Virus record (IMG/VR): IMGVR_UViG_2547132277_000001 | Length of the DNA: 27,860 bases | Direction: 5' to 3' (one strand) | Source: a virus | Taxonomy: Duplodnaviria; Heunggongvirae; Uroviricota; Caudoviricetes | Program-made: the position numbers and the translations under genes | The notes under the pieces: generated by a model | Told to the model about the DNA's origin: nothing | Seen by the model: the letters and a program-made list of their open reading frames with translations, nothing else | Database searches by the model: none | Shown: in pieces, positions 828 through 4,989 of the stretch | Layout of the letters: each line of letters begins with the position of its first letter | How positions within the stretch are numbered: the stretch's first letter is position 1

Positions 828-1205
828 ATGATGAAAAAGTTTATCGCCCCCTTGTTGGCTTTACTGGTTAGCGGATGTCAGATTGATCCTTATACTCACG
901 CGCCAACCTTGACCAGCACCGACTGGTATGATGTCGGTATGGAAGATGCGATATCGGGCAGCGCCATAAAAGATGACGATGCATTTAGCGATTCACAGGC
1001 GGATCGCGGTCTATACCTTAAAGGATATGCCGAAGGACAAAAGAAAACTTGCCAGACCGATTTTACTTATGCCCGAGGACTTTCCGGTAAAAGCTTTCCT
1101 GCCAGCTGCAACAATGTTGAAAATGCCAGCCAACTGCATGAAGTATGGCAAAAAGGGGCTGATGAAAATGCCAGCACAATACGGGTAATGACTCCAACTT
1201 ATTGA
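828..1205 (+). CDS. yfiL: lipoprotein YfiL; the last codons and stop are now supplied by the IS1 end
   Basis: AAGGAG RBS 6 nt upstream of ATG 828. [17 protein letters not shown] carries a lipobox. The reading frame crosses the IS1 boundary at 1184 and stops inside IS1 (...[10 protein letters not shown]). Confidence 0.75.
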
Positions 1206-1702
1206 TAGTGTTTTATGTTCAGATAATGCCCGATGACTTTGTCATGCAGCTCCACCGATTTTGAGAACGACAGCGACTTCCGTCCCAGCCGTGCCAGGTG
1301 CTGCCTCAGATTCAGGTTATGCCGCTCAATTCGCTGCGTATATCGCTTGCTGATTACGTGCAGCTTTCCCTTCAGGCGGGATTCATACAGCGGCCAGCCA
1401 TCCGTCATCCATATCACCACGTCAAAGGGTGACAGCAGGCTCATAAGACGCCCCAGCGTCGCCATAGTGCGTTCACCGAATACGTGCGCAACAACCGTCT
1501 TCCGGAGCCTGTCATACGCGTAAAACAGCCAGCGCTGGCGCGATTTAGCCCCGACGTATCCCCACTGTTCGTCCATTTCCGCGCAGACGATGACGTCACT
1601 GCCCGGCTGTATGCGCGAGGTTACCGACTGCGGCCTGAGTTTTTTAAATGGCGGAAAATCGTGTTGAGGCCAACGCCCATAATGCGGGCGGTTGCCCGGC
1701 AT
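1199..1702 (-). CDS. insB: IS1 InsB reading frame, expressed as an InsAB' fusion by -1 frameshift
   Basis: 167-aa [19 protein letters not shown]...[12 protein letters not shown], recognised as IS1 InsB. It overlaps insA in the -1 frame. Confidence 0.92.
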
Positions 1703-1896
1703 CCAACGCCATTCATGGCCATATCAATGATTTTCTGGTGCGTACCGGGTTGAGAAGCGGTGTAAGTGAACTGCAGTTGCCATGTTTTACGGCAGTGAGA
1801 GCAGAGATAGCGCTGATGTCCGGCAGTGCTTTTGCCGTTACGCACCACCCCGTCAGTAGCTGAACAGGAGGGACAGCTGATAGAAACAGAAGCCAC
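1621..1896 (-). CDS. insA: IS1 InsA
   Basis: 91-aa [46 protein letters not shown]..., recognised as IS1 InsA (zinc-finger/HTH). Confidence 0.92.
1639..1647 (-). other. IS1 programmed -1 ribosomal frameshift motif (TTAAAAAAC on the coding strand)
   Basis: Plus strand GTTTTTTAA at 1639-1647 is TTAAAAAAC on the minus strand, inside the insA/insB overlap. This is the established A6C slippery site of IS1. Confidence 0.8.
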
Positions 1897-1952
1897 TGGA
1901 GCACCTCAAAAACACCATCATACACTAAATCAGTAAGTTGGCAGCATCACCT

Positions 1953-2054
1953 AATGACGTCAGATTTGCCGTAAACCTGGATGCCTTATCGCGTAGCGGT
2001 GTAAAGGTCAACCCGGATGTCTTAATGCTCGCACGGAAGAAAAATGATGGATAA
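1953..2054 (+). pseudogene. yfiR: 3' remnant of yfiR (periplasmic repressor of DgcN/YfiN), truncated by IS1
   Basis: An open frame starts immediately right of the IS1 end and reads [33 protein letters not shown]. Its stop (2052-2054) overlaps the dgcN start as expected for the yfiR-yfiN junction. No start codon or 5' part is present. Confidence 0.6.
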
Positions 2055-3270
2055 CGATAATTCTCTTAATAAGCGCCCCACGTTTAAAAGAGCATTACGC
2101 AACATCAGTATGACCAGCATATTTATCACTATGATGCTGATCTGGTTGCTGCTTTCCGTGACCTCGGTGCTGACCCTGAAACAGTACGCGCAAAAAAACC
2201 TGGCACTGACAGCAGCAACAATGACTTACAGTCTGGAAGCAGCTGTCGTTTTTGCCGATGGCCCTGCAGCAACTGAAACACTGGCAGCGCTGGGCCAGCA
2301 AGGGCAATTTTCAACTGCAGAAGTACGTGATAAGCAGCAAAATATTCTGGCATCCTGGCATTACACCCGTAAGGATCCAGGCGATACTTTCAGTAATTTC
2401 ATAAGCCACTGGCTCTTCCCTGCCCCCATCATTCAGCCGATTCGTCACAATGGTGAAACCATTGGCGAAGTACGCTTAACCGCTCGCGACAGTTCAATCA
2501 GCCATTTTATCTGGTTTTCGCTCGCCGTACTGACCGGTTGTATTCTGCTGGCATCAGGCATCGCAATTACCCTCACCCGCCATTTGCACAATGGCCTGGT
2601 AGAAGCGCTGAAAAATATCACCGATGTCGTACATGATGTGCGTTCCAACCGCAATTTTTCCCGACGAGTTTCGGAAGAACGTATCGCTGAGTTTCACCGC
2701 TTCGCTCTCGACTTCAACAGTCTGCTGGATGAAATGGAAGAGTGGCAGCTTCGTTTACAGGCTAAAAATGCGCAGCTTCTACGTACCGCGCTACATGACC
2801 CATTAACCGGGCTGGCTAACCGCGCAGCGTTTCGTAGCGGCATCAACACGTTGATGAACAATTCCGATGCCCGAAAAACGTCGGCGTTACTATTTCTTGA
2901 TGGCGATAATTTCAAATACATCAATGATACCTGGGGTCATGCGACGGGCGATAGAGTCTTGATTGAAATCGCAAAACGGTTAGCTGAATTTGGCGGGCTG
3001 CGACATAAAGCATACCGCCTGGGCGGCGATGAATTCGCTATGGTGCTCTATGATGTACAGTCGGAATCTGAAGTGCAGCAGATATGTTCAGCACTGACAC
3101 AAATCTTTAATCTCCCGTTTGATCTTCATAATGGCCATCAGACCACCATGACATTAAGCATTGGTTACGCGATGACCATTGAGCACGCCTCTGCGGAAAA
3201 ATTACAAGAGCTTGCCGATCACAATATGTATCAGGCCAAACACCAGCGTGCCGAAAAGCTGGTGAGATAA
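2044..3270 (+). CDS. dgcN: diguanylate cyclase DgcN (YfiN): TM/periplasmic sensor, HAMP and GGDEF domains
   Basis: 408-aa [35 protein letters not shown]... with a C-terminal GGDEF signature ([11 protein letters not shown]), recognised as E. coli YfiN. Confidence 0.92.
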
Positions 3271-3285
3271 CAAGGATATATCGAT

Positions 3286-3768
3286 ATGATAAAGCACCTG
3301 GTAGCACCCCTGGTTTTCACCTCACTAATACTGACTGGCTGCCAGTCCCCTCAGGGAAAGTTTACTCCTGAGCAAGTCGCCGCTATGCAATCTTATGGAT
3401 TTACTGAATCCGCCGGCGACTGGTCGCTGGGCTTATCAGATGCCATTCTGTTCGCAAAAAATGACTACAAATTGCTCCCGGAAAGCCAGCAACAGATCCA
3501 AACCATGGCAGCTAAATTGGCCTCGACAGGGCTAACACATGCCCGTATGGATGGACACACCGATAACTATGGTGAAGACAGTTACAACGAAGGCTTATCA
3601 TTGAAACGGGCGAATGTCGTGGCCGATGCATGGGCTATGGGTGGACAAATTCCACGCAGCAATCTCACCACACAGGGTTTAGGAAAAAAATATCCCATAG
3701 CCAGTAACAAGACCGCCCAGGGCCGCGCCGAGAACCGCCGCGTCGCAGTGGTGATTACTACCCCTTAA
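3286..3768 (+). CDS. yfiB: OmpA-family outer-membrane lipoprotein YfiB
   Basis: 160-aa ORF with lipobox (LILTGCQ) and an OmpA-like C-terminal motif (NRRVAVVITTP). RBS AAGGA upstream of ATG 3286. Confidence 0.9.
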   Translation: MIKHLVAPLVFTSLILTGCQSPQGKFTPEQVAAMQSYGFTESAGDWSLGLSDAILFAKNDYKLLPESQQQIQTMAAKLASTGLTHARMDGHTDNYGEDSYNEGLSLKRANVVADAWAMGGQIPRSNLTTQGLGKKYPIASNKTAQGRAENRRVAVVITTP

Positions 3769-3782
3769 AACACCAGCAAACA

Positions 3783-3818
3783 GATAAAAAAGGGCCAGCC
3801 AATTGGCCAGCCCTTCTT
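3783..3818. terminator. stem-loop terminator downstream of yfiB
   Basis: AAAAAGGGCCAGCCAATTGGCCAGCCCTTCTT: GC-rich dyad flanked by an A-run and a T-rich stretch. Confidence 0.5.
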
Positions 3819-3939
3819 AACAGGATGTCGCTTAAGCGAAATCTTAGTTAAGACGCTCCTATTAACACCCCACAGCGAACAAACACTTACCATATAAAAC
3901 AACTAGTTAAAGTAATTTTTAATGCAGTGAATTGCAGTG

Positions 3940-4989
3940 TTATGCAACCTCTGCCGCCACATTGTCGCCAACATACAGCGATAACGGATTGAGGGTTACA
4001 GCTTGTTCAAGGTGGTCAGGAGCAAAGTGCGCATACTTCATTGTTTCTCGAATATTGGCATGTCCGAGAATTTTCTGCAGCACCAGTATATTCCCTCCGT
4101 TCATCATAAAATGCGCACCAAAAGTATGACGCAAAACGTGCGTCTTCTGCCCTTCCGTCAATTCAATATTCGTTAGTTTGAGCATCTTTTTAAACTCCTG
4201 ATAGCAGGGTTTAAACATTCTGCCTTGACGTACGGACAACTCGTCGTACAGCCATTTAGGAATGGGAACTGTGCGATTCTTCTTACCTTTGGTTTTGGAG
4301 AACGTTAGTTTATATGGAGAAAGTTGAGGTCGGGTCAATCTCTCCGCTTCCCCCCATCGAGCGCCGGTTGCAAGGCACACCTTAACAATCATGGTGAGGT
4401 CTTCTTTGCCGTATTGCTCGCAGGCTCGAAACAGCTCCGGGAGCTGAGACAAAGTTAGCCAGGACATTTCTTTCTCAGCTTCTTTGAATACTCGGATCCC
4501 ATCAAGTGGATTGGGTAGGCTCCACTCCCCTAACCGGCGGAGCTCATTAAACACTGCTTCTAGGTATTGTTGTTCGCGATTGACGGTTATAGGTTTGGCG
4601 ATCCATTTCGAGGGGTCTTTATGATAACCATTGTCTATTTCACCACGTAATCGACGGTCACGATAATGAGCCCAGTCTTTCGCGGTAAGGCGAGATGCAA
4701 TCGGGTCGCCAAGTCCATTACATACGATTTGAAGCTTTGCAAACCTCGACTTACTGGCGACTAACGCTTGACCGTGCAAATTGTGCCAAAGCTGAATAAT
4801 CTCGCTTAAGCGTCGGCGGTCTTCTTTCTTGCCGAGCCACGGCTTATCTTCACTCTCGCTTTTGGTAAATGCTTCAAATGCCTCGGCCTCACCTTTGGTA
4901 TTGAATTGCCGACGTATACGCCGCCCTTCTCGACCATTTGGATAGAGTTCACACAACCATTTTCCACTTTTTTGTTTACTTACAGTCAT
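3940..4989 (-). CDS. int: P2-family tyrosine integrase
   Basis: 349-aa ORF. N-terminal RIRRQFNTKGEAEAFEAF and C-terminal GARWGEAERL ... HVLRHTFGAHFMMNGGNILVLQKILGHANIRETMKYAHFAPDHLEQAVTLNPL match the P2 Int pattern, including the catalytic R..H-x-x-R..Y region. Confidence 0.9.
   Translation of the reverse strand: MTVSKQKSGKWLCELYPNGREGRRIRRQFNTKGEAEAFEAFTKSESEDKPWLGKKEDRRRLSEIIQLWHNLHGQALVASKSRFAKLQIVCNGLGDPIASRLTAKDWAHYRDRRLRGEIDNGYHKDPSKWIAKPITVNREQQYLEAVFNELRRLGEWSLPNPLDGIRVFKEAEKEMSWLTLSQLPELFRACEQYGKEDLTMIVKVCLATGARWGEAERLTRPQLSPYKLTFSKTKGKKNRTVPIPKWLYDELSVRQGRMFKPCYQEFKKMLKLTNIELTEGQKTHVLRHTFGAHFMMNGGNILVLQKILGHANIRETMKYAHFAPDHLEQAVTLNPLSLYVGDNVAAEVA

Follow-up and report, generated by a model that had tools for sequence, protein, structure and literature searches.

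How did a stretch of Escherichia coli DNA come to hold an intact gene for the diguanylate cyclase DgcN (YfiN) next to the mere tail of yfiR, the gene for the periplasmic inhibitor of that cyclase, and is the cyclase still likely to be made? The locus in question lies near one end of IMG/VR record IMGVR_UViG_2547132277_000001 (27,860 nucleotides; the window hereafter denotes this whole stretch, and coordinates refer to it unless they are given as K-12 locus positions), where a copy of the insertion sequence IS1 is wedged between yfiL and what remains of yfiR. Comparison with the K-12 locus and with complete E. coli genomes indicates that yfiR was very probably lost in two steps, both driven by IS1: an insertion into the gene followed by deletion of the DNA adjacent to the element, after which the allele became fixed in enterotoxigenic E. 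coli (ETEC) of the O6:H16 type.

Insertion and deletion at yfiR

The extent of the loss was determined against the locus of E. coli K-12 MG1655 (L003; yfiL 1861-2226, yfiR 2376-2894, dgcN 2884-4110), the comparison with a reference yfiLRNB locus that the earlier, sequence-only reading of this DNA had proposed as a check. The left arm of the alignment stops at K-12 locus position 2216 and the right arm resumes at 2792. The 575 bp missing relative to K-12 comprise 10 nt from the end of yfiL, all 149 bp between yfiL and yfiR, where the yfiR promoter is expected, and nucleotides 1-416 of yfiR. At the deletion junction (1183-1184), the last kept base of yfiL (K-12 locus 2216) is fused to the first base of the right terminal inverted repeat (IRR) of IS1. 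Both junctions are found, the same 888 bp apart, in 28 independent complete genomes, and the structure is therefore not an assembly artefact.

The ancestral state of this allele is represented by the genome TUM9803, whose IS1 agrees with that of the window in site, orientation and right junction. In this genome, yfiL, the intergenic region and yfiR up to nucleotide 424 are still present. The IS1 of TUM9803 is bounded on both sides by the 8-bp direct repeat TAATGACG (K-12 locus 2792-2799). Removal of the 583 bp directly to the left of IS1 (locus 2217-2799) turns the TUM9803 allele into that of the window; the right flank is 100% identical, and the first 8 nt of the yfiR remnant are TAATGACG, the surviving copy of the original target duplication. 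The element itself is 100% identical to the IS1 of TUM9803 and to that of L001, a locus identical to the one analysed here. Twelve complete genomes, TUM9803 included, carry the simple insertion without deletion, in an identical position and orientation and with an 8-bp duplication. These insertion-only relatives retain the 5' part of yfiR, which is not what would be expected of an organism that naturally lacks the gene and has an intact duplication at this position.

A second derivative of the same insertion is found in the goose isolate FG92-1, which has the same IS1 and right junction and a larger leftward deletion ending at 2159, inside yfiL. In each case the loss begins at one end of the element and leaves the IS1 and its other flank unaltered, and both a parental allele and another endpoint exist. 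Two different deletions from the same end of the same resident IS1 amount to classical adjacent-deletion behaviour. The adjacent deletion that the sequence-only reading had recognised from the window is thus supported by TUM9803, by the 11 further insertion genomes and by FG92-1. All carriers of the IS1B-type element at 2792 share a K-12-like backbone, with 0-2 single-nucleotide polymorphisms (SNPs) in 3.6 kb, and the other IS1 events at this locus are on clearly different backbones.

The history that best accounts for these alleles began, as the comparison with TUM9803 shows, with the insertion of an IS1B-type element into codon 139/140 of yfiR, in antisense orientation and with duplication of the 8-bp target TAATGACG; this cut off the last 33 codons of yfiR and parted dgcN-yfiB from the yfiR promoter. 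In the second step, the structural result of which can be read directly from the alleles and the mechanism of which we infer, the IRR of the resident IS1 would have attacked the end of yfiL by intramolecular transposition. Such an event would have removed 583 bp, that is, one copy of the duplication, yfiR nucleotides 1-416, the 149-bp intergenic region with the promoter, and the last 10 nt of yfiL, leaving the element and its right flank untouched and no duplication behind. The resulting allele would then have been fixed in the ancestor of the O6:H16-type ETEC carriers, lineage L2 included. Under this sequence of events, the title claim of the sequence-only reading, a deletion removing yfiR, holds only in part. 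The deletion is real, but it was not the inactivating event: yfiR had already been inactivated by the insertion, which came first, and the deletion took the dead 5' part, the promoter region and the stop codon of yfiL.

The IS1 element is known for RecA-independent deletions that start at its end. Those described for the gal region and for Tn9/IS1 plasmids, which are attributed to intramolecular replicative transposition, share with the present case the exact start at one end of IS1, the unchanged element and opposite flank, the lost duplication, the variable endpoints (here 2216 and 2159) and an AT-rich neighbourhood. Unlike them, the allele described here is a natural one, fixed in a pathogen lineage rather than obtained as a laboratory isolate, and is known from its sequence.

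The same insertion history could also have ended differently, with the 583 bp lost through RecA-dependent recombination between two direct copies of IS1, one in yfiR and the other at the end of yfiL. This route predicts a single IS1 with mismatched flanks, which is what is seen, and the end of yfiL is a real IS1 target: the pig strain NT1N31 has an unrelated IS1 variant (94.8% identical) in a simple insertion of the same orientation at 2215, 1 bp away from the left junction of the window at 2216. Because an unrelated IS1 inserted 1 bp away, the left endpoint of the window, beside the very AT-rich intergenic DNA, is a preferred IS1 target. An initial candidate for a junction shared exactly by NT1N31 and the window was rejected when inspection at the base level placed the two at 2215 and 2216, respectively. 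Nevertheless, we regard recombination as rather unlikely. The two-copy intermediate was not found among the 5,426 complete genomes, and all 28 genomes with the yfiL-IS1 junction have the right junction 888 bp away. Moreover, the endpoints at 2216 in ETEC and at 2159 in FG92-1 would need two separate second insertions within 650 bp, and end-starting, RecA-independent deletion is the classical product of IS1.

The variants of the resident element bear on the same choice. In ten of the 12 insertion-only genomes (e.g., L002 4168-4934; the 99.2% class), the IS1 measures 767 bp because one base of the left terminal inverted repeat (IRL) is missing, GTTGGCAGC being replaced by GTTGCAGC, and the outward TTGGCA is changed as well; the damaged IRL end might immobilise the element. 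Both deletion derivatives, those of ETEC and FG92-1, come from the 768-bp IS1 with the intact IRL and not from the commoner 767-bp form, a pattern that speaks against recombination and that could equally be phylogenetic chance. Altogether, we favour a one-step deletion over IS1-IS1 recombination.

Two considerations weigh against this preference and the history of which it is part. A second IS1 at the hot spot at the yfiL end, followed by homologous recombination between the two copies, would yield an identical product. Furthermore, the shared ancestry of the steps would follow from the identical IS1, the identical junction and the K-12-like backbone, rather than from a genome phylogeny. The argument needs these identities because the 3' end of yfiR is itself an apparent IS1 hot spot: within 28 bp (K-12 locus 2792-2819, window 1952-1979), there are four independent events, all in the same orientation, namely the IS1B insertion at 2792-2799, that of an O121 strain at 2800, that of VG1046-3E9 at 2803-2811 and that of LR-24 at 2812-2819. 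An origin of the window allele independent of the TUM9803-type insertion, for instance by a rightward deletion from an IS1 at the yfiL end that stopped by chance at the same yfiR nucleotide, could appeal to the fact that both ends lie in IS1 hot spots, but is very improbable, since its right junction would have to match, by chance and to the base pair, that of a 100% identical IS1 on the same K-12-like backbone, and the kept TAATGACG is the very 8-bp target that the simple insertion duplicated.

The locus provides an unusually complete natural IS1 series, consisting of the empty site, a simple insertion and two different adjacent deletions.

The element and the residual genes

The element in the window is a full member of the IS1 family. 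It is of the IS1B type and occupies 768 bp on the minus strand (1184-1951), with its transposase genes antisense to yfiL, yfiR and dgcN. On the window strand it opens with GGTAATGACTCC... (IRR) and closes with ...GGCAGCATCACC (IRL). The IRR, beside yfiL, extends over 1184-1206 (GGTAATGACTCCAACTTATTGAT), and the IRL, beside the yfiR remnant and dgcN, over 1929-1951 (reverse complement GGTGATGCTGCCAACTTACTGAT); the length and the ends are those of the family, about 768 bp with imperfect repeats of about 23 bp (GGTGATGCTGCCAACTTACTGAT / GGTAATGACTCCAACTTATTGAT). The insA gene (1621-1896, minus strand) encodes 91 amino acids with the Zn_ribbon_InsA (3e-21) and HTH_Tnp_IS1 (1.7e-30) domains, and the insB' frame (1199-1702, minus strand), the DDE transposase part of InsAB', matches DDE_Tnp_IS1 (2.3e-78), so that all three IS1-specific Pfam domains score far above their cut-offs. 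Both frames are open, and the A6C -1 frameshift site, AAAAAAC, is present at IS1 position 307 (approximately 1639-1645). No direct repeat of 8-9 bp surrounds the element in the window, where the left flank, CACAATACG, and the right flank, TAATGACGT, are unrelated. The missing duplication is the expected mark of a secondary rearrangement and is not evidence against IS1.

The yfiL gene, which encodes a DUF2799 lipoprotein, spans 828-1205 on the plus strand and retains 119 of its 121 native codons; the final residues, LN, are swapped for six IS1-encoded ones, VMTPTY, after which the frame closes at a stop within IS1. L001, the identical locus, has this version of yfiL annotated with a length of 378 nt. 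On the other side of the element, the yfiR remnant (1952-2054, plus strand) comprises the last 33 codons and the stop codon, without the start codon, the signal peptide or the promoter, and overlaps the start of dgcN (2044) by 11 nt. Its translation (NDVRF...KKNDG*) is identical to the last 33 residues of YfiR, residues 140-172. The YfiR of K-12 is a DUF4154 protein of 172 amino acids, the N-terminal part of which is needed for export. The remnant matches just positions 116-143 of the 143-position YfiR/HmsC Pfam profile and is already labelled a partial YfiR/HmsC pseudogene by RefSeq in L001. The sequence-only reading had described a complete 768-bp IS1 with both inverted repeats and without a target duplication, a near-complete yfiL, only about 33 final codons of yfiR overlapping the dgcN start, and the disappearance of the yfiR 5' region with its promoter, all of which agrees with the ends, reading frames and K-12 comparison given here.

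In the YfiBNR module, only the periplasmic repressor is lost, as the N-terminal region and start codon of YfiR are gone. The dgcN gene (yfiN; 2044-3270, plus strand) is intact and encodes a protein of 408 amino acids identical to K-12 DgcN, a membrane diguanylate cyclase with CHASE8 and GGDEF domains (Pfam) and the GGDEF motif visible in the translation. Downstream of it, yfiB (3286-3768, plus strand) is likewise intact; its product of 160 amino acids is identical to K-12 YfiB and contains an OmpA domain (Pfam), as befits the OmpA-like member of the module. A palindromic stem-loop in the yfiB-rplS intergenic region (3787-3818) is retained, and a scan scored it as a terminator on the minus (rplS) strand only.

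Expression of dgcN and yfiB

Both in E. coli and in Pseudomonas, the cyclase YfiN/DgcN is inhibited by the periplasmic protein YfiR, as the sequence-only reading had stated, and loss of YfiR derepresses it (PMC4992967, PMC10127611, PMC2837407). YfiR being absent, any DgcN made from the window allele certainly has no periplasmic inhibitor, and all 28 allele genomes permanently lack YfiR, no other inhibitor of DgcN being known. The cyclase has no product-inhibition site; once active, it can stop motility, division or growth, induce cellulose synthesis and render cells tolerant to antibiotics (PMC4992967, PMC10127611). Deletion of yfiR alone causes no growth arrest (PMC10127611), and native yfiN expression is too low to detect (PMC4992967).

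The allele resembles the yfiR loss mutants of E. coli CFT073 and K-12 and the small-colony variants of P. aeruginosa in that the inhibitor is gone and the cyclase and YfiB are intact. It differs from them in that the mutants keep yfiN expressed, the knock-outs having been built against polarity (PMC4992967, PMC10127611), whereas the window allele has lost the native promoter and carries 768 bp of antisense IS1 ahead of dgcN. The loss of the promoter and the antisense IS1 make expression doubtful, and the mutant phenotype is therefore not transferable to carriers of the allele.

On balance, we lean towards the view that transcription of dgcN-yfiB would be strongly reduced and that the module would be mostly quiet rather than running away, because the native promoter is gone, read-through from yfiL would be long and untranslated, and the one hybrid promoter that can be proposed is weak. 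Transcripts reading through from yfiL would cross about 840 untranslated nucleotides. IS1 is polar in both orientations, and, on the plus strand, the stretch from 1228 to 1617 contains 31-37% C, with a C/G ratio of 1.3-1.6 in most windows; such C-rich, G-poor sequence would suit Rho loading and termination. No plus-strand promoter above the scan threshold was found upstream of dgcN. A looser scan yielded a sole candidate between 1800 and the dgcN ATG, a putative IS1-flank hybrid promoter on the plus strand (1938-1966) that combines TTGGCA in the IRL, across 17 nt, with CAGATT in the yfiR remnant; this pair, unproven as a promoter, matches the consensus at 8 of 12 positions and falls below the threshold of the first scan.

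Some points count against reduced transcription. The arguments from IS1 polarity and Rho termination draw on classical knowledge and on base composition. In addition, dgcN and yfiB are intact in every carrier inspected and could still be in use, a point to which so young a lineage lends no weight. For the same reason, and because the target is too short (1.7 kb), a test for purifying selection on dgcN-yfiB in the carriers was dropped.

Activation of genes by IS1 hybrid promoters was reportedly described by Prentki et al. in 1986, and the candidate in the window resembles such cases in part. As in those upstream of afaA in ST131 (PMC8764528) and of acrEF, the outward, -35-like TTGGCA is located 8 nt from the tip of IS1 and faces the downstream gene; unlike them, it is paired here with a poor -10 partner, CAGATT, and is known at the level of sequence. 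Such promoters are documented (PMC8764528, PMC9330008), but the outward -35 of IS1 helps only when a good, correctly placed -10 is available, and of three IS1 insertions in ST131, one raised transcription, one lowered it and one had no effect (PMC8764528).

Hence the opposite outcome, a gain of signalling, has to be taken seriously, tentative as it is and less probable than a mostly quiet module. DgcN would then be transcribed from the IRL hybrid promoter or by read-through and, unrestrained, would produce cyclic di-GMP (c-di-GMP) constitutively, a state that would have been selected in ETEC. The intact, K-12-identical dgcN and yfiB, which are annotated as intact in other carriers too, are consistent with this outcome, as are the TTGGCA of the IRL with a -10-like CAGATT at 17 nt, the derepression of YfiN upon loss of yfiR (PMC4992967, PMC2837407), of the kind seen in the Pseudomonas yfiR small-colony variants, and the persistence of the allele for more than 40 years in a successful lineage. 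However, the promoter would be weak, with only 3 of 6 matches in its -10 among the 8 of 12 overall, native yfiN expression is already undetectably low, and the intactness of the genes carries no statistical weight in so young a clone. A further observation comes from the insertion-only genome AR_0085 (L007). Its dgcN (locus 3653-4878) is annotated as frameshifted, a tract of four G (CTGGGGTC, K-12 locus 3773) being one base short. The frameshift may be a sequencing error in this homopolymer or a mutation that suppresses unrestrained DgcN, and is counted here among the points against a gain of signalling. The H16 in the names of carriers is a name label only and has no weight either way on DgcN activity.

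Stronger still would be the proposal that loss of YfiR is adaptive in O6:H16-type ETEC, with a weak IRL promoter providing low, constitutive, brake-free DgcN and a raised c-di-GMP set-point. We consider this distinctly improbable. If it held, DgcN would operate without redox or envelope-stress input, adherence, cellulose or antibiotic tolerance would be affected, and the raised c-di-GMP would have helped a worldwide clone to persist for decades. The allele would then be an enteric counterpart of the Pseudomonas yfiR small-colony variants of cystic-fibrosis lungs, and the clustered independent IS1 hits in yfiR would reflect selection and not target preference alone.

To return to the choice between a mostly quiet module and an active one, either outcome bears on the c-di-GMP, biofilm and motility phenotypes measured in the carrier strains. 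Carriers that transcribe dgcN would be constitutive-DgcN mutants of natural origin, and carriers that do not would be natural nulls of the entire YfiBNR stress-sensing module.

Carriers, other IS1 events and the adjoining prophage

The O6:H16 type of ETEC, to which some vaccine-challenge strains belong, is one of the most frequent causes of ETEC diarrhoea. Among the 5,426 complete E. coli genomes, 28 carry exactly this deletion allele; those carriers that could be identified are ETEC, and the names of three records include O6:H16. For eight carriers, the listed affiliation is ETEC lineage L2 (ST-4, LT+STh, CS2+CS3), with isolation dates ranging from 1971 (B2C, Viet Nam) to 2014 (PMC13212926), and the carrier M9682-C1 is an O6:H16 strain from 1975 (PMC8085198). 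A published comparison between a plasmid of FORC_031 and the CS1 plasmid from the reference strain of lineage L1 (PMC8085198) hints that this sister lineage may carry the allele too. The exact junction could be tried as a polymerase chain reaction marker of carriers.

A full-length yfiR elsewhere in the genome, which would have undone the loss claimed by the sequence-only reading, was not found in the 5,426 complete genomes and the plasmids searched. The gene is covered to at least 80% in one place in 5,365 of these genomes, an upper bound on intact yfiR given that some IS1-interrupted copies were joined from two pieces. In 45 of the 5,426, nothing matches the deleted segment, as would be expected if the 28 carriers, FG92-1, the O121 strain and 14 genomes without a yfiR match had no second copy. 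No yfiR homologue was detected on a genuine E. coli plasmid, the four E. coli 'plasmid' hits being records of 1.4-4.9 Mb. Scans for the exact junction in metagenome contigs and in one genome per species gave no hits and are uninformative. Likewise, no description of the allele was found in the literature on yfiR/dgcN with IS1, ETEC or pseudogenes, a search that did not cover the c-di-GMP comparison of Povolotsky and Hengge; the natural allele is apparently undescribed, its mechanism being well known.

The region from the end of yfiL to the start of dgcN (1.2 kb) has received at least 10 further independent IS1 events. They involve the same element family and locus as the window allele, and several of them also lose yfiR, but the insertion sites, the IS1 variants and the backbones differ, and the events are therefore independent. 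Simple insertions in yfiR are found in LR-31, YZ3-11, 3385, VG1046-3E9 and LR-24, and deletion alleles in O121 201805972, DS26-1 and LR-71-1, the last two of which also lose the start of dgcN. In NT1N31 (L004 2560-4842), there are two IS1 copies, one at the yfiL end and the other in dgcN codon 21-24; an intact yfiR lies between these inverted copies and dgcN is disrupted, an arrangement that resembles a composite transposon carrying yfiR. In LCP30S3_I3 (L016 1658-2355), an IS1 lies between yfiL and yfiR, about 47 bp before the latter begins; its transposase genes are co-directional with yfiR, and yfiR-dgcN-yfiB is intact, which makes this strain a natural test case for effects on the operon promoter.

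The target at the yfiR 3' end, AATAATGACG, resembles the tip of the IS1 IRR, GGTAATGAC. In the older IS1 literature, resemblance of a target to the IS1 end goes with hot spots. This likeness could itself fix the orientation of the insertions. The predominance of antisense insertions was considered as a sign of selection for an outward promoter, and this interpretation was rejected, as the junction queries join pieces of the same strand and favour one orientation. An orientation-neutral list contains three events inside yfiR, all antisense, and one between yfiL and yfiR, in sense orientation, too few to conclude from. Nor do we claim selection-driven enrichment of IS1 at this locus, for which the genome-wide number of independent IS1 events would be needed and could not be estimated.

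Beyond the terminator region of yfiB, the rest of the window (3859-27860) is a P2-like (Peduovirus) prophage with an integrase gene at 3940-4989 on the minus strand; it matches Escherichia phage vB_EcoM-613R3 with 97.8% identity across 89% of its length. Homology to K-12 ends at 3858, 15 nt into the 3' end of rplS, which points to this end of the gene as the apparent attachment site of the phage. A prophage at the rplS junction is present in 47 complete E. coli genomes. The combination of the deletion allele with the exact prophage of the window was found in none of the complete genomes in the collection; taken with two SNPs in aroF (described below), this suggests that the strain behind the window is not one of them. 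In most ETEC genomes with the deletion allele, rplS directly follows yfiB, with no prophage between them, and E66 combines the allele with a prophage that is 98% identical over the junction stretch tested. At the opposite end of the window, in the 3' part of aroF, positions 11 and 42 are two SNPs relative to K-12 that are absent from M9682-C1, the locus of which is otherwise identical.

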